This document shows positions 390 through 49,634 of a DNA stretch of 64,000 nucleotides, in pieces. Origin of the DNA: an uncultured Acidimicrobiia bacterium (GTDB lineage: Bacteria > Actinomycetota > Acidimicrobiia > Spongiisociales > Spongiisociaceae). Made by a program: the position numbers and the translations under genes. How positions within the stretch are numbered: position 1 is the stretch's first letter; every line of letters begins with the position of its first letter. The stretch lies in the NCBI GenBank assembly GCA_958295745.1, contig OY282370.1, positions 1,295,724 through 1,359,723 of the forward strand, read 5' to 3'. A model generated the notes under the pieces. The model ran no database searches and was not told where the DNA came from. It was given only the letters and a program-made list of their open reading frames with translations.

Positions 390-691
390 GAGGTCGGCGG
401 GCCTTCACCGGATCCCGGGCCGAGTCCGCAGGCGGGTTTGATGCGGCGGCCCCCAGAGAACCTCTCCGACGGGAGGGCGGCCCGCCCTTGCTCTCCCCTC
501 CGTCGCGCCGAGTCCTGCCGGGCTTTCTATCTCCTACGCCGTCGAACGACCCTGCCTCGCCCTGCCGGACCGAATCCGCCCAACCCGCCTGTCCCTGCCC
601 TGTTCGACGTTCTTTCCGCCCCCGGACATCCGAGGACCCGGGGAAATGGACGGAGTAACCATTCACGGCTCAGGGACAGACAGTCAGGACC

Positions 692-978
692 CGTTTTTCG
701 CGTTCTCCGCCCAAAACCTCCGGCTTCGCCGGGCCCTGCCCCCGCCGCCACCGATCCACCGTCTTCGGGCCGCCGGGGGCGTGTCCGCCCGGCTTGTGCC
801 CGATCCGTCTCAGCACAGCTAGTCCGACCGCCCCCGCCCCTTGGAGGCCCGCCCGGGAAGATGACCGAAGGGTCGGCGCCTCTGGGCCGGGGAGTGGTCT
901 TCTATGACCCCAGTGATCCGCGGAGCCACTGGAATATCTGTTATCCAACACTATACACCCTACCTATGACAATTTCAA
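692..978 (-). ncRNA. Candidate promoter-driven structured RNA/leader element, copy A (orphan, transcribed leftward)
   Basis: Minus-strand -35 TTGAAA (973-978), 17-nt spacer, -10 TATAGT (950-955). Downstream hairpin CCAGTGG..CACTGG, then GGTCATAGAAG, then a conserved core ending CGTTTTTCGCGTTCTC at 692-707 (plus-strand representation). Roughly 85-90% identical to copy B over the core by eye. Confidence 0.4.
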
Positions 979-3176: not shown

Positions 3177-3545
3177 TTGTTGTTGTCACATCAATGCTGT
3201 ATAGTGTTGGATAACAGACCCCGCAGCGGTCCGGAAGCTGCGGTCATAGAAGTCGTCCCATCCACAGAGACGCCGTCGCTTCGGACAGGTTACGGCGGCG
3301 GTCCGGAATGGGCAGGACGGTTGAACTTGCTGTGCTGAGACGGATCGGGCACGGGGCCGGGCGAGCACGCCCCCCGCGGCCCGAAGACGGTGGATCGGTG
3401 GCGGCGGGGGCAGGGCCCGGCGAAGCCGGCAAGTTTCGGGCGGAGAACGCGAAAAACGATTCTGGGCCGGTACATCTGGTCGTCTCGGCGGCCCGATTGC
3501 GAAATAGTTCTCTTACCAGAACAGGCTGGTCCACCGGCCCGGATC
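3177..3545 (+). ncRNA. Candidate promoter-driven structured RNA/leader element, copy B (orphan, transcribed rightward)
   Basis: -35 TTGTTG (3177-3182), 17-nt spacer, -10 TATAGT (3200-3205). Hairpin CCGCAGC..GCTGCGG co-varies with the copy A hairpin. GGTCATAGAAG follows, then the core GCTGTGCTGAGACGG...GAGAACGCGAAAAACG (3329-3458). Confidence 0.4.
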
Positions 3546-5487: not shown

Positions 5488-6708
5488 TCAGCGGCGGAGC
5501 TCCTCCAAACGGTCCTCCATGGTCGCACGCAGGCGGTCGGTGACGGGCGGGTCGAAGCCGATATCGGAGGTTCGCTCGATCCAGACGGCGGCCTTGTCGC
5601 ACAGCGCGGCGATCTTGCGGGCCGCCAAGCGGGGCGGCAGGCCGAGGGATTCGGCGAAGCGTATCCAGTCGGATCCCCTGATGCGGTTGCGGCGGCCGTC
5701 CACGTGTAAGGCCTGCAGATCGTTCGGGATATAGGGGCTCGTGCTGATCAGGTCGTACACCGGGGTCGGCTCCACCATCTGCTGAGCAGGCAGCCAACGG
5801 ACGCTGATGTTCTTGGCGTGCATGTCCCCGTTGGCGATCAGATACGAAAAGGCGGCCAGCCGAACCAGCTCCAGCGCCGCCGGTTTCGGGGCCGACGCCA
5901 CCGCCGTCACCGCCCCCGCGGCCTGCCGCAACGACAGGCGGTACTTGTCGGCGGGCCATCGTCCGGCCAGCTGGCACACGTCCTCTTGGGCGAGGCGCAC
6001 CACCCGCTCCCCTTCCCGCACCCGGTCGAACCGCTCCACCAACAGCCCGGAAACCCCGTCTCGGTCCTCGACGACCTTGTGCGGAGGCACCCGGAAACCG
6101 CACCCTTCGGCCATCCCCAGAAAAAAAGCCTCGTTCTCCACGAGCCGCGGATAGAGCGGCGGGGTCAGTTTCAGGATGGCCGGCCCGCCCCCGATCTCCG
6201 CCGGAAAGGAAATCAACCCATCTGACAGCTTGTCCTGCACACCGGGGAGAGCCGTATCCAGCTGCGGGTCGGAAACCGCCACCGAGCGGGCGAACAGCTC
6301 TCGGAACGACACCCCGCCTGGATCAGACACCCCCGACCCTTCCCCCGGATCGCGGGGCCGCTCCCCGACCGGAACCACCGTGACGTTGCCCACCGTATCC
6401 CCGCCAACAGCCAGCAACAAAGACAGCTCGTCGTCGAGGGAAGTCTTGACCGCCCTGACAACCGCCTGCAGCCGCACTCCCTCCGGCAGGAGCCCGGCGA
6501 AGAAGGCCGGCACCGACCCGCCCGCCGTGATATACGGCTCGTCGCGGACCGGCAAGGTAGAAGCCACCCCCCGATAGCCGCCCCGCCTGTAGGAAGGGTC
6601 GTAGTCGAACTCGACATGATCAGGCCGCCGCCGCAGCCGTCCGGCCAGGATGCCGCCCTGATAGACATCGGCCGCATCTACCGAAGCTATTTCTGCCGGG
6701 TCGATCAT
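5488..6708 (-). CDS. hipA: HipA-family Ser/Thr kinase toxin
   Basis: N-terminal GNVTVVPVG, P-loop-like LPGVQDKLS and the catalytic LIANGDMHAKNISV motif (D-x-H-x-K-N). The ATG at 6708 overlaps the hipB stop (ATGA). Confidence 0.75.
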   Translation of the reverse strand: MIDPAEIASVDAADVYQGGILAGRLRRRPDHVEFDYDPSYRRGGYRGVASTLPVRDEPYITAGGSVPAFFAGLLPEGVRLQAVVRAVKTSLDDELSLLLAVGGDTVGNVTVVPVGERPRDPGEGSGVSDPGGVSFRELFARSVAVSDPQLDTALPGVQDKLSDGLISFPAEIGGGPAILKLTPPLYPRLVENEAFFLGMAEGCGFRVPPHKVVEDRDGVSGLLVERFDRVREGERVVRLAQEDVCQLAGRWPADKYRLSLRQAAGAVTAVASAPKPAALELVRLAAFSYLIANGDMHAKNISVRWLPAQQMVEPTPVYDLISTSPYIPNDLQALHVDGRRNRIRGSDWIRFAESLGLPPRLAARKIAALCDKAAVWIERTSDIGFDPPVTDRLRATMEDRLEELRR

Positions 6709-20627: not shown

Positions 20628-22448
20628 TTACTCCACGGTGACGCTCTTGGCCAGGTTCCGCGGCTGGTCGATGTCGCGGCCCAGCAGGCGGGCGGTGTGG
20701 TAGGCGAGCAGCTGGAGCGGAACTGCGGCCAGGATCGGGGACAGCAGATCGGCGGTGCGGGGCACCCGCAGGACACGGTCCGCCACCAGGTCGATCTCTT
20801 CGTCGCCCTCGTAGGCCACGGCTATGACCATGGCGCCCCGGGCCTTCACCTCCTGGAGGCTCAGCAGCAGCTTGCCGTATAAGTTCTGCTGGGTGGCCAC
20901 CGCCACCACCGGGGTGCCTTCGTCGACCAGCGCCAGCGTGCCGTGCTTCAGCTCCCCTGCGGGCATGGCCTCCGCATGTATATAGGAGATCTCCTTGAGC
21001 TTGAGGGCGCCCTCCATAGCGCTCGCGTAGTCGAGTCCCCGGCCTATGTAGTAGACGCTGGACGCTCCGGCCAGCTCTCCGGCCAGCAGGCGAAAGGGAT
21101 CCTGATCAGCGAGGACGCGGGCCGCCTTGTCGGAGAGGGAGTGCAGCTCTTCGACCAGCTTCCGCTCCTGGTCGGGGCCGGTGACGCCCCGCGACCGCCC
21201 CAGCCGGAGGGCCAGCAGGCATTCCCCCACCAGCATGGCCAGGTAGGCCTTGGTGGAGGCGACGGATATCTCCGGCCCCGCCCACGTGTAGAGGACTTCG
21301 TCCGCTTCCCGGGCCAGGCTGGACCCCACCACGTTGGTGAGGGCCAGCAGGCGGGAACCGCGCCGGCGGGCCAGCTTGGCGGCGGCCAGCGTGTCGGCGG
21401 TTTCACCGGACTGGCTGACGGCGAGCGTCAGGGAGCGGTCCCCGATGAGAGGATTCGAATAGCGCAGCTCGTGGGCGTATGCCACCTCGGTCGGCACGGC
21501 GGCCAGCCGCTCGAACATGGTCCGCCCGACCAGGCCGGCGTGGTAGGCGGTGCCGCAGGCGGTGATCCATATCTTCTGCACGTCCGCCGGATCGCCTTCC
21601 GCCCATGACAGGTCGGCCAGCGCCTTGCCGCCGTGGATGCGGCCGCCGAGGGTGCGGGCGATCACCTCGGGCTGTTCGTGTATCTCCTTGAGCATGAAGT
21701 GGGCGAAACCGGCTTTCTGAACCGATTCGTTGTCCCATTCGGCGGTAAAGGAGCGCCGCTCGACGGGACGGCCTTCGAGGGTCTCGATCCGGGCGCCGTC
21801 CCTGGTCACCTCGGCTATCTCACCGTCTTCGATGATCAGGAACTCGCGGGTGTAGTCCAGCACCGCCGGCATGTCGGAGGCCAGGAAGGTCTCCCCCTCT
21901 CCGAGTCCCACCACCAGAGGGCTGATCATCCGGGCCGCCACGATCCGGCCCGGTTCGCGGGAGGTCATCGCCACCAAGGCGTAGGCCCCGGAGGCCCGGC
22001 GCACCGCCCGGCGGACGGCTTCCTTCAGGTCTCCTTCGTACTCGAGGGCCAGCAGATGGGCAAGCACCTCCGTGTCGGTCTCGGAGCGGAACCCGACTCC
22101 GGCGCCCTCCAGCTCGCTCCGCAGGGCCCGGAAGTTCTCCACGATCCCGTTGTGCACCACCACGAAATCGCCTGTGTTGTCGCTGTGAGGGTGGGCGTTG
22201 CGGTCGGAAGGCGCCCCGTGGGTGGCCCAGCGGGTGTGCCCGATGCCTGCACGGCCGGGAAGCGGCGCCTCCTCCAAGCGGGCCAGCAGCCGATCGAGCT
22301 TGCCTTCGGCCTTCGATATGGCCACCGACCCGTTGTGGGCCACGGCGAGGCCGGCCGAGTCGTAACCCCGGTATTCCAGACGGCGCAACCCGTGGACCAG
22401 AACTTCCTGCGCCGGCCGGGGACCCACATAGCCGACGATCCCGCACAT
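20628..22448 (-). CDS. glmS: Glutamine--fructose-6-phosphate aminotransferase
   Basis: MCGIVGYVG N-terminus (catalytic Cys2) and two SIS domains. GGAGG lies 8 nt upstream of the ATG at 22448. Confidence 0.9.
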   Translation of the reverse strand: MCGIVGYVGPRPAQEVLVHGLRRLEYRGYDSAGLAVAHNGSVAISKAEGKLDRLLARLEEAPLPGRAGIGHTRWATHGAPSDRNAHPHSDNTGDFVVVHNGIVENFRALRSELEGAGVGFRSETDTEVLAHLLALEYEGDLKEAVRRAVRRASGAYALVAMTSREPGRIVAARMISPLVVGLGEGETFLASDMPAVLDYTREFLIIEDGEIAEVTRDGARIETLEGRPVERRSFTAEWDNESVQKAGFAHFMLKEIHEQPEVIARTLGGRIHGGKALADLSWAEGDPADVQKIWITACGTAYHAGLVGRTMFERLAAVPTEVAYAHELRYSNPLIGDRSLTLAVSQSGETADTLAAAKLARRRGSRLLALTNVVGSSLAREADEVLYTWAGPEISVASTKAYLAMLVGECLLALRLGRSRGVTGPDQERKLVEELHSLSDKAARVLADQDPFRLLAGELAGASSVYYIGRGLDYASAMEGALKLKEISYIHAEAMPAGELKHGTLALVDEGTPVVAVATQQNLYGKLLLSLQEVKARGAMVIAVAYEGDEEIDLVADRVLRVPRTADLLSPILAAVPLQLLAYHTARLLGRDIDQPRNLAKSVTVE

Positions 22449-22916
22449 GTGCGCCTCCAACCCACTCGTTCGACAACCACGGTAGACACTACTAGGGACA
22501 GGGCGGCATATAGCGTCTCACGGCAGGCCGGTGCGGACGGTCAAGCGCTGTCTGCCCCAAGGGTTCGGGGCAACCCGTTTCCGAGGAAGGCGGCCCCTGC
22601 CCACCCTCCTACTCACAGAACCCGCCTTCGCTCGGCATCCTGCAGGTCAGTCTCGTCGTTGCCGTAAAGCGCCTGGCCAATCGGGGTCGGTAAAACCGGG
22701 CTTCGCACCTCGAGAACGCGAAAAACGACCCACCTCCGCCCCCTTCGGGCCCGGCCCCCACCTCCTCCACTCCGTTTGAACGGTCGTCTTGGGCGTGCGG
22801 GGCTTGGGAACCCTCGGCGCTCAACACGACCTGGAATGATCACCGCCCTCCGGAGCAGAAGTGATATTTGTGATATCGGTATATATTGTTATACAACATT
22901 CTTGGGACAAGTTCAA
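22449..22916 (-). promoter_or_regulatory. glmS promoter plus about 430-nt structured leader (element copy C)
   Basis: Minus-strand -35 TTGAAC (22911-22916), 17-nt spacer, -10 TATAAC (22888-22893), with the shared upstream GAACAAGGGT motif. The 5' hairpin ATCACTTCTGC..GCGGTGATCAT is shared with copy D. GGGCCGGGCCCGAAGGGGG is present, and the GAGAACGCGAAAAACG box appears in inverted orientation (plus-strand 22712-22727). Confidence 0.45.
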
Positions 22917-22944
22917 GACCCTTGTTCGAAATCTCTTCGGTTTT

Positions 22945-24357
22945 TCAGCCGAGCTCGCCTGCCACGACTTCTGACAGCTCCAGGGCGGTCGAACGGGCCG
23001 TCTCCATGGTGGGGGCCTCGACCATCACCCTGACCACGGGTTCGGTGCCCGAAGCTCGAACCAGGATCCGCCCGTCTTCGCCCAGCTCCGCTTCGGCGGC
23101 CCGAACCGCCTTCCACACCCGGGCCGCCCCGTCCAGGTCCTTGGACCGGACCGGCACGTTCTCCAAGACCTGAGGGAACTCGACGAGAGCCTCCCTGCGC
23201 AGGTCGCGTATCGGGCGCCCGGCGGCCGCCGCCACCTCCAGAAGCCGGACGGCGGTGCGCAGCCCGTCCCCGGTACGGGCCCGATCTAGCTGGATCACAT
23301 GGCCGGACTGCTCCCCGCCCAGGAAAGCCCCATGCCGCAACATCGCCTCCAGCACGTACCTGTCGCCCACCCGGGTCTCGATCAGCTCGATGCCTTCCCG
23401 GCGCATGGCCCGGCGGAACCCCAGGTTGGACATGACGGTGGCCACCACCCGGTCGAGGCGCCCCAGGCGTCGCAGGTGACGGGCGATGACGGCCAGGATC
23501 ACGTCGCCGTTGGCGGCCGCACCGTCCTCGTCCACCACGATCAGGCGATCGGCGTCCCCGTCGAAACACAGCCCGATCCGCCCTCCGGCCGCCGCGGCCA
23601 GGCTCTCCGGGCAGGTGGCCCCGCACCCGTCGTTGATGTTCATGCCGTCCGGCGCCCCGAAGTACTCCTCCACGTCGGCGCCGAGTTCTTCGAACAGGCG
23701 CCTAGCCGCGCCCGAAGCCGCCCCGTTGGCGCAGTCGAGGGCCAGCCGGAGGTCTGCCAGCCCGCCCGCAGGGGTCTGGCGGAGGATGCCTTCCAGATAA
23801 CGATCGACCGCATCCGGGAAGGGACGGCGGAGGCCGATGCCCGCCCCGGTCGGCGCCTTCCAAGGCCCTCCCTTTTCCAGCCGGCTCTCGATCTCCCCCT
23901 CTGCGCCGTCGTCCAGCTTGCCGCCCCGCTCGTCGAAGAACTTGAAACCGTTGTCGGGGGCGGGATTGTGGGAGGCCGACACCATCACCCCGAGGCGGGC
24001 GCCCAGATCGGAGACCAGATCCGACACCCCGCCCACCGGAACGACCCCCGCATCGATGGTGTTCACCCCCACCGAATGGAAGCCGGCCTGCAGCCCGGCG
24101 CCGAGCATCTCCCCGGAGCGGCGGGTGTCGCGCCCCACCAGGACCGCCCCTCCGCCGATCAGCTCGCCGGCCGCCCGGCCCAAATCGAACGCCAAGGGCA
24201 CGCCGAGGTCGAGATTGGCCACCCCTCGGATGCCGTCGGTGCCGAACAGTCGGCGGGATCGGACGGGCCCGGAAGTCGGGGCCCCTGGAAGAACGTCTGG
24301 CTCCGCCGATTGCGGCCCCTGTCGGCCTGCCCCTCGGCGCCCAGGTATTTCAGTCAT
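22945..24357 (-). CDS. glmM: Phosphoglucosamine mutase
   Basis: ..LFGTDGIRG.., the active-site region SASHNPAPDNG and the ..GDGDADR.. motif. The N-terminal approximately 25 aa may be an extension, because the start is uncertain. Confidence 0.85.
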   Translation of the reverse strand: MTEIPGRRGAGRQGPQSAEPDVLPGAPTSGPVRSRRLFGTDGIRGVANLDLGVPLAFDLGRAAGELIGGGAVLVGRDTRRSGEMLGAGLQAGFHSVGVNTIDAGVVPVGGVSDLVSDLGARLGVMVSASHNPAPDNGFKFFDERGGKLDDGAEGEIESRLEKGGPWKAPTGAGIGLRRPFPDAVDRYLEGILRQTPAGGLADLRLALDCANGAASGAARRLFEELGADVEEYFGAPDGMNINDGCGATCPESLAAAAGGRIGLCFDGDADRLIVVDEDGAAANGDVILAVIARHLRRLGRLDRVVATVMSNLGFRRAMRREGIELIETRVGDRYVLEAMLRHGAFLGGEQSGHVIQLDRARTGDGLRTAVRLLEVAAAAGRPIRDLRREALVEFPQVLENVPVRSKDLDGAARVWKAVRAAEAELGEDGRILVRASGTEPVVRVMVEAPTMETARSTALELSEVVAGELG

Positions 24358-25265: not shown

Positions 25266-26024
25266 CTAACGGTGCTCGTTCCCGAACGCCACATCGTAGT
25301 CCACCCGCCACAACACCAAACCGTGGGGCGGCGCCGCGCCCCGGGCCGCGTTCCGGTCCCGGGCTTCGAGCACCCTCACGGCCTCCTCCGGCGCCAGCCG
25401 CCCCCTGCCCACCTCGACGGAGAAGGCGGCGATCGACCTGACCATCTGATGGCAGAAGGCCAATCCTTCGATCTCCAGGCAGAGCAGTCCGTCGGGCAGG
25501 CGCCGCCAACCGGCCGACGTCACGGTGCGGACCGTCGAGCGGCCCTCGGCCTTGCGGCAGAATGAGGCGAAGTCGTGCTCCCCCACGAAATATCCGGCCG
25601 TTTCGTTCATCGAGGCCGCGTCCAGCGGGTGCGCGACGTGCCAGACGGTGAAGCGGCGCAGAGGGTCGGGGTGGGGCCGGTCGAGTATCCGGTACCGGTA
25701 GGTGCGTCGGGCGGCGTCGAACCGGGCCGAGAACCCGTCGGGGACCCGCCGGCAGCGGTAGACGACCACTTCGGGGCCGAGCAGCCTCGTCAGGGAGAAG
25801 GGCAGTCGGCGGCAGTCGACCGGCGTCTCGGTGTGAAACGAAACAACCTGATGGCGGGCGTGCACCCCGGCGTCGGTGCGGCCCGCCACCGCGGTGCTGA
25901 CCGGTTCGAGGATGCGGGCCAGGGCGGCTTCCAGCTCTCCCTGCACGGTGCGCACGTCCGGTTGCCGAGCGTAGCCGCGGAACCCGGATCCGTCGTAGGA
26001 CAGGTCGAGGCGGTAGGTGGGCAT
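25266..26024 (-). CDS. truA: tRNA pseudouridine(38-40) synthase
   Basis: ..GRTDAGVHA.. carries the catalytic Asp. The gene sits between rplQ and rplM, as in other actinobacteria. Confidence 0.85.
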   Translation of the reverse strand: MPTYRLDLSYDGSGFRGYARQPDVRTVQGELEAALARILEPVSTAVAGRTDAGVHARHQVVSFHTETPVDCRRLPFSLTRLLGPEVVVYRCRRVPDGFSARFDAARRTYRYRILDRPHPDPLRRFTVWHVAHPLDAASMNETAGYFVGEHDFASFCRKAEGRSTVRTVTSAGWRRLPDGLLCLEIEGLAFCHQMVRSIAAFSVEVGRGRLAPEEAVRVLEARDRNAARGAAPPHGLVLWRVDYDVAFGNEHR

Positions 26025-26043: not shown

Positions 26044-26568
26044 TCAGACGGCGGCCGGGAACAGAATCGTCCCTATGTACCAGCCGAGGACGCCGGCGGC
26101 GGCGAGGAAGCTGTTGCGGGGGTGCCTCATATCGAAAAGGGCGTCCGCCACCACCCGCAGGGCCAGGAAGAACCATAGGAGCGACAGGGCGAGCAGAGGT
26201 ATGCGCAACAGGTCCGCCCAGACCGCCGCTATCAGCGGGAGGAAGGCGACGTGGGCGAACCCGACCAACCGGAAGGCCGAGGCCAGACTGCCGTAGCGCT
26301 TGAACAAGTGGACGCCCGCCGCCCAGACCGCCCCGGCGGCCAAGCCCGCCCGCACGATGCTCCACAGCGCCGCCGACGCCGCAGCGACCACCGACGGGGC
26401 GGCCAGCACGGGGAGCACCGAGACGAGGACGATGACCACCACCGCGTTGCCGGTGGCGTAGTTGTCATGGCGCAACGACGTGTAGAAGGACCTGTCTAGC
26501 CGCCCTGCGCTGAAGATCTGACCGAACACGGCACCTCGCACCGAAGACTCGGCAGAGGCTACCAGCAC
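26044..26568 (-). CDS. Integral membrane protein, Yip1-domain-like (hypothetical)
   Basis: 174 aa with 4-5 predicted TM helices and no recognisable catalytic motif. Confidence 0.45.
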   Translation of the reverse strand: MLVASAESSVRGAVFGQIFSAGRLDRSFYTSLRHDNYATGNAVVVIVLVSVLPVLAAPSVVAAASAALWSIVRAGLAAGAVWAAGVHLFKRYGSLASAFRLVGFAHVAFLPLIAAVWADLLRIPLLALSLLWFFLALRVVADALFDMRHPRNSFLAAAGVLGWYIGTILFPAAV

Positions 26569-26575
26569 AAGGGTA

Positions 26576-27154
26576 TTGACTTGTCGCAGCTACTCGATAT
26601 GATGATAACTGTAGAACAATACAAACATCACTTCCGCAGTCCGGACAGCGGTGATCATATGAGCGAGTCCCGCACCGGGACGAGCAAAACTAGCTGTGCC
26701 GAGACGGATAGGGCACGGAGAGGGAACACGCCCTCTCGCCCCTGAGACGGTGGATTGGCGGCGGCGGGGTGGGGCCCGGCGAAGCCGGGGATTTGGCGGG
26801 GAGAACGCGAAAACCGGCGGCTGGCGGGGGGCAACACCGGAAGGACGGGGCTTGGTTCAACGGTGGGGCGGTCGAAGCGACCTAACCTTGCGCCTACCGC
26901 AGATGCACTCTCGAAAGGCTCGGCTACCTACGATCCCGTCCTACCGAGGCCGCCTTGAGAACCCAACCCGGTTTCGGCCCGACCAAGGCCTTTCCAAAGC
27001 GTCGTGGGCGACGCCAGCGGCCCCCGGGCAGGCCGGCTCGGCGTCGGCCGCCGGGCAGGGGAGCCCCAACTCGACGATGGGTGTTACCACCCGGACGGCG
27101 GATGATCCGTCCTGAGGTCGCTTCGATGGGGCGTCCGTTGGTCATGGCAAGAAT
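26576..27154 (+). promoter_or_regulatory. Promoter plus about 550-nt structured leader (element copy D) in front of the low-GC two-gene module
   Basis: -35 TTGACT (26576-26581), -10 TATGAT (26598-26603), upstream ACAAGGGTATTG. 5' hairpin ATCACTTCCGC..GCGGTGATCAT. Core TAGCTGTGCCGAGACGGATAGGGCAC...GGCCCGGCGAAGCCGG...GAGAACGCGAAAACCG at 26693-26816. Confidence 0.45.
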
Positions 27155-27376
27155 TTGGCTTCGGTGTATATGCTCTCCCAAGACGACAAGGGGAACGGGA
27201 TGGTTGTCGTAATAAACCTAACGGAAGAGGAACTGTGGAAGCGGATCGATCCCTCGCTCGAGGACTTGGGGATGACACGTGACCGGTTCATCGCCGAAGG
27301 GAGAAACGACACTCTTGAAGACCCGCAGCTCCGGGACCTCTGGATCGTATACGGGGCGATGTTGACAGAGGAATGA
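27155..27376 (+). CDS. Small acidic hypothetical protein (candidate antitoxin/immunity-like partner)
   Basis: ORF of 73 aa. An internal ATG at 27200 is preceded by AAGGGGAACGGG, giving an alternative 58-aa protein. Region is about 50-55% GC by eye. Overlaps the next ORF by ATGA. Confidence 0.4.
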   Translation: MASVYMLSQDDKGNGMVVVINLTEEELWKRIDPSLEDLGMTRDRFIAEGRNDTLEDPQLRDLWIVYGAMLTEE

Positions 27377-27939
27377 ACGATTCGAAGCTCTGGATCCTTG
27401 CTCGAGAGTTTGCAGAAGATCTAAACAACAACCTCATGGCAAGGGTTCTGGGTGTCGGTGATGCTCTCCGGGTTACCGGCAAGGGTAAAGATAAAGTCTC
27501 CATAGAAACAACGGGGGTTGACTCTCGAGAGAAACCTGGGTTGCCCCTGATGCGGGCGTCTGATGAAACCCCGTCCCTGTTTCTTCGGGTCGGGTTCAGG
27601 CTCATGCTCGATTCGCAGAACGAGTTCCTGAAAGTCGATAGTTCCATCTTCGGACTGTGGGTCAAGACACCTGATCGCAACCTCCCGCGGCCTTTCGTGC
27701 GGGTCGAGTACGACCGGAGAAAGAGGCGGGCCTCGGCGGCGCATATACAGATACACGCCGAGTCGAAGGATCTGAAGTGGATCGACCAGTCTGCCGGGAG
27801 GACCCCCCGGCAGACAAGCGGGTCAGACCAGCTCTATCTGGGCCATCTCGGCGTTGTCGCCGCGCCGGGGGCCCAACTTGACGATGCGGGTGTAACCGCC
27901 CGGGCGGCGGTTGTAGCGGGGCGCCACCTCGTCGAATAG
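27373..27939 (+). CDS. Basic hypothetical protein (188 aa as drawn; C-terminal about 40 aa overlap the rplQ 3' end on the opposite strand)
   Basis: Low-GC ORF, translationally coupled to the upstream small ORF. Has a basic patch (RRKRR). I found no match to a family I recognise. The last 117 nt run antisense through high-GC rplQ sequence, so the functional C-terminus is uncertain. Confidence 0.4.
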
Positions 27940-28173
27940 TTTGGTCACCACTTCGAGGTCGGTCAGGTCGCGGAGCACCAGACGGCGGGAGTGGAGATCG
28001 CCGCGGCGGGCCTTGGTGATGATCTTCTCGACGTAGGGCCGCAGCACCTTGGCCTTGGCGACCGTGGTGGTAATCCGCTCGTCCCAGATCAGGGACTGAG
28101 CCAGGTTGGCCAGCATCGCCTTCTGATGAGCCGGGTCGCCGCCCAGCCGCTTGCCTTTCCTGGGGCGGGGCAT
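27823..28173 (-). CDS. rplQ: 50S ribosomal protein L17
   Basis: [12 protein letters not shown]... The ATG at 28173 overlaps the rpoA stop. Confidence 0.9.
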
Positions 28174-49213: not shown

Positions 49214-49634
49214 GGGCCAACTATAGGAGTCGGCTATACGGCCAGACGCAGAGAAAGAGCCGAGAGAAGCCGTGCGGCCCGCCGTCGAACGGACATCCCG
49301 AGGCGCAAACCGGCCGCCTGCTCGGGCCCGGCACCCCTACGGCACCCGGTACGCATCGCTTAGGGCTGCTTCCTCCCGGACCTGACCCGGTTCACGAAGG
49401 TTCCGCTGCGCAGGACCCGGCCGTCAATACCGCGTGCCGGCCGCATACCGGCGAGATGCCGACGCCCTTCGACGGGCTTCCGCCCCGCATGTAGAGGGTT
49501 TCGGGTAGAGGGCACCCCTAGCGCCCCGCGTAGCACGGCCGAATCCGGAGTATACAGGTCATCCAGGAAGAGCACTGAACAACGAAGATGGCTCGGTCCC
49601 GTGTATTGCTCAGCACATCTAGAATCACCCCCCA

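Follow-up and report, generated by a model that had tools for sequence, protein, structure and literature searches.

Type II toxin–antitoxin (TA) operons such as RelBE, ParDE, and VapBC consist of two co-directional genes, usually with overlapping stop and start codons, in which a small acidic first gene precedes a larger second one; they are spread patchily and horizontally (in prophages, on plasmids, and between housekeeping genes), stand out in GC content, and, when they decay, lose the larger gene and keep the small one. A second point of reference is the att-linked cargo of mycobacteriophages and M. abscessus prophages, which occupies a swappable integrase-proximal slot where TA and defence genes are found (PMC8092301; Dedrick et al., 2017, as cited there). 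These traits recur in a two-gene module, composed of the open reading frames (ORFs) ORF1 and ORF2, that is described here from a 64,000-nt stretch of DNA (hereafter the window) of an uncultured Acidimicrobiia bacterium (GenBank assembly GCA_958295745.1, contig OY282370.1, positions 1,295,724 to 1,359,723 of the forward strand). Unlike the established type II systems, neither protein resembles a known toxin or antitoxin in sequence or fold, full-length ORF2 (about 235 aa) is bigger than most type II toxins, and ORF1 carries no detectable DNA-binding domain; toxicity and neutralisation are what we infer for the pair. On balance, we read positions 27167-27808 of the window as a decaying copy of a horizontally mobile, Actinomycetota-wide two-gene cassette of a TA- or abortive-infection-like kind.

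The entire two-gene finding is contained, on the plus strand throughout, in the interval 26569-27822, on which rplQ converges from the other side. ORF1 (27155/27200-27376) is coupled to ORF2 (27373-27939) by an ATGA overlap at 27373-27376, as an initial annotation made from the sequence alone had reported. The drop in GC content that it had estimated by eye for about 27150-27800 was borne out by measurement in 200-nt windows (0.52-0.585 across 27100-27800 versus 0.64-0.73 on both sides), and codon usage follows suit, with third-position GC (GC3) of 0.67-0.70 in the two ORFs versus 0.83-0.90 in the host genes truA, rplQ, rpoA, rplM, and glmM.

As read in the window, ORF2 encodes 188 aa (pI 9.5, 20.8 kDa) and includes the RRKRR patch that had already been noticed, yet the basic protein of about 19 kDa that the initial annotation had proposed is not a natural one. 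Homology searching with the 188-aa sequence returned seven clusters, the four full-length members of which (228-234 aa) align only to the first 71-78% of the window protein. The decisive comparison is with L005, a 2.2-Mb metagenome contig that is the source of a fragment (P0006) 96% identical to window ORF2 and that presents truA, the membrane ORF, the module, rplQ, and rpoA in the order seen in the window. In L005, ORF2 opens at the ATGA and runs for 237 aa to a point 73 nt short of the rplQ stop codon. The two loci are near-identical at the nucleotide level (about ten differences in the 435 nt of the ORF2 remnant) except for one gap, wherein 337 nt of L005 (pairwise alignment columns 1809-2145) are missing from the window at 27802-27808, between ...CGGGAGGA and CCCCCCGGCAG..., flanked on either side by short GGAGG/CCCCC microhomology. 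The deletion takes the last 92 ORF2 codons, the stop codon, and most of the spacer. What is left is a remnant (27373 to about 27808, plus strand) covering residues 1 to about 145 of about 237, homologous over that length to L005 and to the homologues P0002-P0005, followed by a read-through tail (27809-27939, plus strand) that has no family homology, crosses the region of the rplQ terminator, and runs antisense to rplQ from 27823. Because of the 337-nt deletion, the 188-aa ORF2 is a chimera and its 117-nt antisense overlap with rplQ, although present as reported, is an artefact and not a feature of design.

Nine of the 13 most conserved ORF2 residues have disappeared with the deleted segment, namely H152, P154, G156, G157, R159, R161, E165, D166, and Q199, all of which are 94-100% conserved among 119 family members. 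Judged by its sequence, window ORF2 is a pseudogene, and the system is almost certainly dead in the window genome, since the deletion removed the catalytic-looking C-terminal 40% of ORF2. Exact-protein look-up found neither the 188-aa ORF2 nor P0001 on record. A perfect hairpin with 9-bp arms (TCTGCCGGG/CCCGGCAGA) lies at 27789-27815, immediately past the rplQ stop; the ORF2 remnant supplies its left arm, in which two of the roughly ten substitutions that separate window and L005 ORF2 fall. The L005 spacer has a different hairpin, which the window has lost, and the window hairpin may be an rplQ terminator re-created after the deletion.

ORF1 has remained intact. The initial annotation had allowed 58-73 aa for an acidic product; its acidity stands (pI 4.25), and its start is fixed at 27200 by an equivalent start position in all homologues, which gives 58 aa (27200-27376, plus strand). 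The protein is identical between the window and L005, and P0002-P0005 are each preceded by an ORF of 57-59 aa that is 60-76% identical to window ORF1. Homologues align across loci with the consensus MPTVIHxTxxELxxQRxxLLxxxGMSxEELRxRAxxYxLS...IDYLL and describe a family of small, acidic, helical proteins of 57-92 aa. Profile searching recovered at least 152 clusters, none of them annotated as anything other than hypothetical; among the source genera are Streptomyces, Mycobacteroides, Mycolicibacterium, Rhodococcus, and Rathayibacter. The ratio of nonsynonymous to synonymous substitution rates (dN/dS) among four close homologues is 0.10-0.13. The ribbon-helix-helix (RHH) fold of CopG/Arc/MetJ antitoxins was considered for ORF1 on the strength of a beta-strand/helix/G-M-[ST]/helix pattern seen by eye alone and was set aside, as Pfam (105 members scanned singly, with scattered chance-level matches alone) and two profile searches against the PDB were negative. 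In one homologous locus (L004, 9690-9827), two copies of the 38-nt sequence CACGGGCTGTATCATCAGTGATGAAGAGAGGGGCAAG, whose starts are 67 nt apart, immediately precede the ORF1 homologue, and the duplication takes in the ribosome-binding region.

The ORF2 family is larger. A profile search of 1.84 billion representatives yielded 803 clusters at 50% identity with E <= 1e-3 (545 with E <= 1e-10), nearly all of 215-255 aa, and dN/dS among four close homologues (0.13-0.23) again points to purifying selection. Conservation is concentrated in S91 (98%), H124 (99%), H152 (98%), P154 (99%), G156 (100%), G157 (94%), R159 (97%), R161 (100%), E165 (100%), D166 (94%), and Q199 (100%), with R115 and R205 at 89%. 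In the form of a signature, AH-x-[QH]-x-H on a strand is followed by LHFPxGGxRFRPxLED, which leads into a helix N-terminus. Such an arrangement suggests phosphate binding. The AlphaFold2 model of P0003, built on a 119-sequence alignment (pLDDT 93.1, pTM 0.89) in place of an earlier model on seven sequences (pLDDT 45), shows an N-terminal helix over residues 3-25 and a seven-stranded antiparallel sheet over 31-127, after which helices follow at 131-140, 164-173, and 184-217; the N-terminal helix and sheet are predicted to pack against the C-terminal helices. One family member, P0027 (L013, 1002-2222), is a 406-aa protein in which the ORF2 domain (3-223) is followed by a C-terminal extension of about 180 aa without a Pfam match; a 64-aa ORF1 homologue precedes it all the same.

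The statement that neither protein belongs to a recognisable family held up under searching: window ORF1 and ORF2 gave no match in Pfam, PADLOC, PHROGs, or NCBIfam, and the 119 ORF2 members, scanned singly against the same four collections, gave scattered chance-level matches alone (against the component HMMs of PADLOC-DB 2.0, one of the 119, at E = 0.008). Profile searches of both ORFs against PDB sequences returned nothing meaningful, no homology to any characterised protein was found, and the confident ORF2 model has no solved structural neighbour in the PDB and BFVD. The literature searched by gene context and homologue accessions contained no description of the family.

Several described enzymes were weighed individually against the ORF2 signature. 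Histidine-triad (HIT) nucleotide hydrolases share an H-hydrophobic-H-hydrophobic-H motif on a beta-strand with about 40% of ORF2 members (for example, AHVHIHA), a likeness confined to the motif; unlike in HIT proteins, Gln replaces the central His (the nucleophile of HIT enzymes) in 56% of members, the window clade among them (AHIQIHA), and the third His is only 65% conserved. With no HIT protein among the structural neighbours and no Pfam HIT match, membership of that superfamily was rejected. Fic enzymes with VbhA/FicA partners were likewise rejected: the LHFPxGGxRFRP stretch is spaced differently from HxFx(D/E)GNGRxxR and lacks the D/E and the N, the model is alpha+beta versus the all-alpha Fic fold, Pfam Fic does not match, and ORF1 homologues lack the conserved (S/T)xxxE(G/N) motif of VbhA-type proteins. 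HEPN (Rx4-6H), RES, and ART motifs were dropped after comparison with the conservation table and the alpha+beta model.

The pairing of the two genes is a constant of the family. At every locus examined (the window, L001, L004-L006, L009-L013, L015, L016, L018, L020, and L021) the small gene lies upstream of the large one, and across about 14 independent loci the two mostly overlap by 1-14 nt, with gaps at two (9 and 41 nt). The flanking genes, in turn, vary between related genomes. Close homologues are found between a nitroreductase gene and pntB, between an AhpC fragment and ABM, and between atpC and a transaldolase gene; distant pairs, about 28-37% identical in ORF2, include those of Brevibacterium samyangense and of Citricoccus, the latter directly downstream of glmM (the presence of glmM near both the Citricoccus and the window modules is probably a coincidence). 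In all seven loci measured, module GC (0.51-0.61) lies below that of the flanks (0.64-0.71).

Mobile carriers are also represented among these distant pairs. Five plasmids harbour the module (one from Streptomyces albus, two from Rhodococcus, and two from Curtobacterium), of which the S. albus copy lies 1 kb upstream of a type I-E cas3 and the copy on pDK3, the Rhodococcus plasmid looked at, lies near integrases and a transposase; blastn of the window locus itself against plasmids gave no match. A Streptomyces integrated element carries the module along with genes for an excisionase-like HTH protein, DpdA, a DnaB-like protein, and a TraA-like protein. In MabE1 prophages of M. abscessus (prophiGD102-2 and prophiGD54-1), the module corresponds to genes 78 and 77, between the tyrosine integrase and the lysis cassette, and the small protein was encountered in 164 index blocks of assemblies, all with MabE1 prophage context. 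The sibling prophiGD04-1 has other cargo in the same slot, annotated as 'RNA demethylase' and 'oxidoreductase'. Genes 78 and 77, here putative TA or defence genes, differ from the described att-linked cargo in being annotated only as hypothetical, and they are not among the TA and polymorphic-toxin systems given in PMC8092301, which lists the prophages. The window copy differs further in being chromosomal, with no prophage around it.

Decay of the kind seen in the window has occurred elsewhere. In Citricoccus (L010, 5486-6444), a frameshift divides ORF2 into two parts (5709-6020 and 5932-6444) beside an intact ORF1, and in Rathayibacter rathayi (L022-L027, 8001-8790) ORF2 retains only about 51 codons from its start in at least 24 assemblies, across which the 63-aa ORF1 homologue is intact and identical, an orphan kept species-wide. 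Counting the window deletion, ORF2 has been lost three times independently with ORF1 intact, and the reverse was not seen, which lends weak support to a TA reading.

These observations can be assembled into a working model. An intact cassette comprises ORF1 followed by an ORF2 of about 235 aa, usually with overlapping stop and start codons, and the invariant polar set of ORF2 (S91, H124, H152, R159, R161, E165, D166, and Q199) resembles that of an enzyme. ORF2 would serve as effector or toxin, with a nucleotide, a nucleic acid, or another phosphate-containing compound as its probable substrate, and co-translated ORF1 would neutralise it, an arrangement comparable with type II TA or abortive-infection systems. 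In the lineage of the window, the cassette has been present at least twice in the variable interval between rplQ and the membrane-protein gene beside truA, and the 337-bp microhomology-flanked deletion has broken ORF2 and left an orphan ORF1. The resemblance to a TA or defence pair asserted by the initial annotation is supported with respect to conserved coupling and prophage, plasmid, Streptomyces-element, and cas3 contexts, and falls away with respect to charge asymmetry, which is not general (ORF2 pI is 6.5-9.8 among close homologues).

A number of points weigh against this interpretation. Adjacent coupled genes and a mobile, patchy distribution with atypical composition are what a type II system would display, but homology of either partner to a known toxin or antitoxin superfamily was found neither with single sequences nor with the 105- to 119-member alignments, and neither protein matches a toxin, antitoxin, or defence entry in Pfam, NCBIfam, PADLOC, PHROGs, or the PDB (the absence of a structural relative of ORF2 extending to the PDB and BFVD). 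ORF2 is not uniformly basic, and the likeness of ORF1 to RHH proteins, in the absence of a detectable DNA-binding domain, is one of appearance alone. The module is rare, being carried by two of 50,697 phage records and five of 72,556 plasmids, with one contig in IMG/VR matching one exact pattern drawn from an ORF2 sub-alignment, and only one of the roughly 14 contexts adjoins a recognised defence system. As ORF2 presents a four-fold mutational target, its one-sided loss could also be due to chance (probability of about 0.5).

The fuller proposition, namely that the pair constitutes an undescribed Actinomycetota-wide TA or abortive-infection system, whose effector combines a new fold with a new S-H-H-R-R-E-D-Q constellation and is active in the integrase-proximal defence slot of M. 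abscessus prophages that many clinical isolates carry, and of which the window offers a snapshot of decay with an orphan neutraliser, is put forward as plausible at somewhat less than even confidence. The ORF1/ORF2 family as a whole is a good candidate for a TA or defence system that has not been described before and whose effector would have a new fold; the corresponding suggestion in the initial annotation is plausible for this unannotated family and fails for the window copy, which lacks the C-terminal 92 residues of ORF2. If the functional inference holds, a sizeable addiction or defence family (at least 803 clusters at 50% identity) has gone unnamed in annotation resources, and, because it is carried in the cargo slot of prophages common in clinical M. 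abscessus, it might be relevant to phage therapy and to defence mediated by prophages. For the window genome itself the finding is modest, as the cassette is broken there.

The principal competitor, which we consider a real if lesser possibility, is that the module represents non-toxic accessory cargo of mobile elements, in which a small regulator or chaperone accompanies an enzyme (for example, one that modifies nucleic acids or nucleotides, or that serves anti-defence or the fitness of lysogens). The lack of homology to toxin and defence families is as this proposal would have it, as are the many chromosomal copies that sit between housekeeping genes without defence genes nearby, and the integrase-proximal slot is also used by non-defence morons such as the prophiGD04-1 genes. 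Strict coupling to a tiny acidic partner, patchiness, low GC, and repeated loss of the large gene alone are, by contrast, more typical of addiction and defence modules, and one copy abuts cas3.

A second alternative would make the cassette a self-mobilising mini-element, with ORF2 as a novel nuclease or recombinase of homing-like behaviour and a duplicated rplQ 3' end as its integration footprint. Insertion sites that vary between related genomes, directly after or between conserved genes, are in keeping with this idea, and the conserved His, Arg, Glu, and Asp residues of ORF2 are compatible with phosphodiester chemistry. A further argument for it is a direct repeat of the rplQ 3' end that flanks the window cassette: a decayed rplQ 3' end at 27038-27104 (minus strand; 78% versus L005 10582-10647, E = 1.6e-9) repeats 27841-27913 inside the window over 76 nt with 77.6% identity. 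Before it, at 26910-27001 (plus strand), lies a decayed ORF2 3' end (the last 72 nt and 17 nt downstream; 79.6% versus L005 10412-10500, E = 5e-16), which retains the remnant frame LERLGY..PTE..NP versus LESLGYSMIQPTEVDRETNPVSG in ORF2. The two pieces are colinear with the convergent junction of the ORF2 and rplQ 3' ends. Because the repeat also contains the ORF2 3' end, it is the remnant of an earlier module and not a simple target duplication, and from the position of this decayed junction copy, upstream of ORF1, it follows that the module has been present at the locus on at least two occasions. Flanking repeats, moreover, were found at none of the five other module loci where they were looked for, ORF2 matches no nuclease or recombinase fold or profile, and the module, in single copy per locus, rides passively beside bona fide integrases in prophages and plasmids. 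We therefore regard self-mobilisation as improbable, and an att-type integrative element was rejected on the same ground, the rplQ repeat being part of the larger remnant and the cassette having no integrase. A 26-nt inverted repeat (26858-26883/27115-27140, 77% complementary) brackets the 231-nt decayed junction copy and may be a stem formed by long-range RNA pairing, the footprint of a rearrangement, or a chance occurrence.

The proposal of the initial annotation, an intact pair in which an acidic protein of 58-73 aa is joined by a basic one of 19 kDa, driven by a promoter in repeat-element copy D, with a dedicated structured leader of 550 nt and a deliberate convergence on and overlap with rplQ, finds some footing in the 188-codon reading frame and in a promoter-like site upstream. 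This sigma-70-like match (TTGACT-16-TATGAT, 26576-26603, plus strand, 10 of 12 positions) is the sole one in the region, versus 0.3 expected from shuffles. It forms part of copy D, however, and not of the module: the core of the copy, about 130 nt at 26688-26817 (plus strand), lies outside the module, and element D is missing from every other module locus. The leader fared no better, since the folding energy of 26610-26900 (z = -1.9 versus shuffles) is not notably structured and the apparent leader is largely the wreck of an older module copy plus an element copy.

A third close relative, L017, is instructive in this regard, being near-identical to the window, element D and decayed junction included, until about 27166, beyond which it continues with unrelated low-GC sequence (L017 1-70) to the contig end. 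The left edge of the cargo is placed at about 27166/27167 (27160-27170) because L017 diverges there, and the relative suggests an alternative cargo or a repeat such as an insertion sequence (IS) element in the same slot. Given the different sequence in L017 and the absence of D from other module loci, any driving of the module by element D would at best be accidental. With the leader shared by a relative that has other sequence at the cargo position, the last 43 codons of ORF2 lacking family homology as the product of the 337-nt deletion, and the LHFPxGGxRFRPxLED motif and Q199 missing, an intact pair is very improbable.

The element to which copy D belongs has further copies at 691-823 (minus strand) and 3324-3458 (plus strand), with 79-80% identity and a GC-rich, intergenic core, and a fourth locus at 22836-22940 (minus strand), upstream of glmS, which has the promoter-like head alone. 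The head, TTGAC(T/A)...TAT(G/A)AT, is common to copies D and C. Copies of the element are found after a glyoxalase-like gene, in the gap between a luciferase-like monooxygenase gene and nnr, in the glmM/glmS gap, and upstream of the module. Neither the element copies nor the leader matched Rfam, whether across the whole window at the gathering threshold or in 26400-28000 and 22440-22960 at E <= 10 and E <= 1; the family could be a small RNA or other regulatory element, or a miniature mobile repeat. The 480-nt intergenic region upstream of glmS (22461-22944, minus strand) contains the promoter-like head and matched neither the glmS ribozyme nor another Rfam family at E <= 1.

That the two ORFs are spurious, or native housekeeping genes of the ribosomal operon, is hardly credible: high-GC genomes do yield many chance ORFs, but the homologues of each ORF number in the hundreds and are under purifying selection, the GC3 of both is out of keeping with this genome, and they are missing downstream of rplQ in all 80 related metagenome loci compared (L17 proteins 60-92% identical to that of the window). 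The same survey supports the earlier claim of foreign cargo inserted next to rplQ. The immediate neighbour on the other side in the window is a membrane-like ORF, and not truA. In more distant relatives, truA follows rplQ after 92-166 nt, and closer relatives have the membrane ORF between the two, with a variable spacer between rplQ and the membrane ORF; it measures 223 nt in L094 and 631 nt in L065, and L028 has 1232 nt of unrelated sequence that looks non-coding. Because this spacer differs in length and content among relatives, the interval downstream of rplQ is a variable hotspot, and by sequence comparison the module is lineage-specific cargo common to the window genome and L005. For annotation in general, the locus illustrates that a deletion can make a plausible chimeric ORF antisense into an essential gene, that the interval after the ribosomal protein/rpoA/rplQ operon can serve as a cargo hotspot, and that the remains of a junction copy can be mistaken for a structured leader.

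The host flanks are conventional. On the minus strand, the order glmS, glmM, rpsI, rplM, truA, membrane-like ORF, interval, rplQ, rpoA, rpsD, rpsK, rpsM is of the actinobacterial type. The truA gene (25266-26024, minus strand) is a 252-aa ORF whose L005 orthologue carries PF01416; the membrane-like ORF (26044-26568, minus strand, 174 aa), which lies between truA and the variable interval, has no Pfam match and adjoins truA also in L005, L017, L028, L094, and L065. On the other side, rplQ (27823-28173, minus strand; stop codon 27823-27825) encodes a complete L17 of 116 aa that covers positions 1-97 of the 97-position PF01196 profile (E = 6e-39). The ribosomal protein clusters (90% identity) are singletons or common only to metagenome contigs, which places the genome in a sparsely sampled lineage. 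Elsewhere in the window, 49270-49538 (minus strand) encodes a large bacterial signal recognition particle (SRP) RNA with an Alu domain (136.9 bits).

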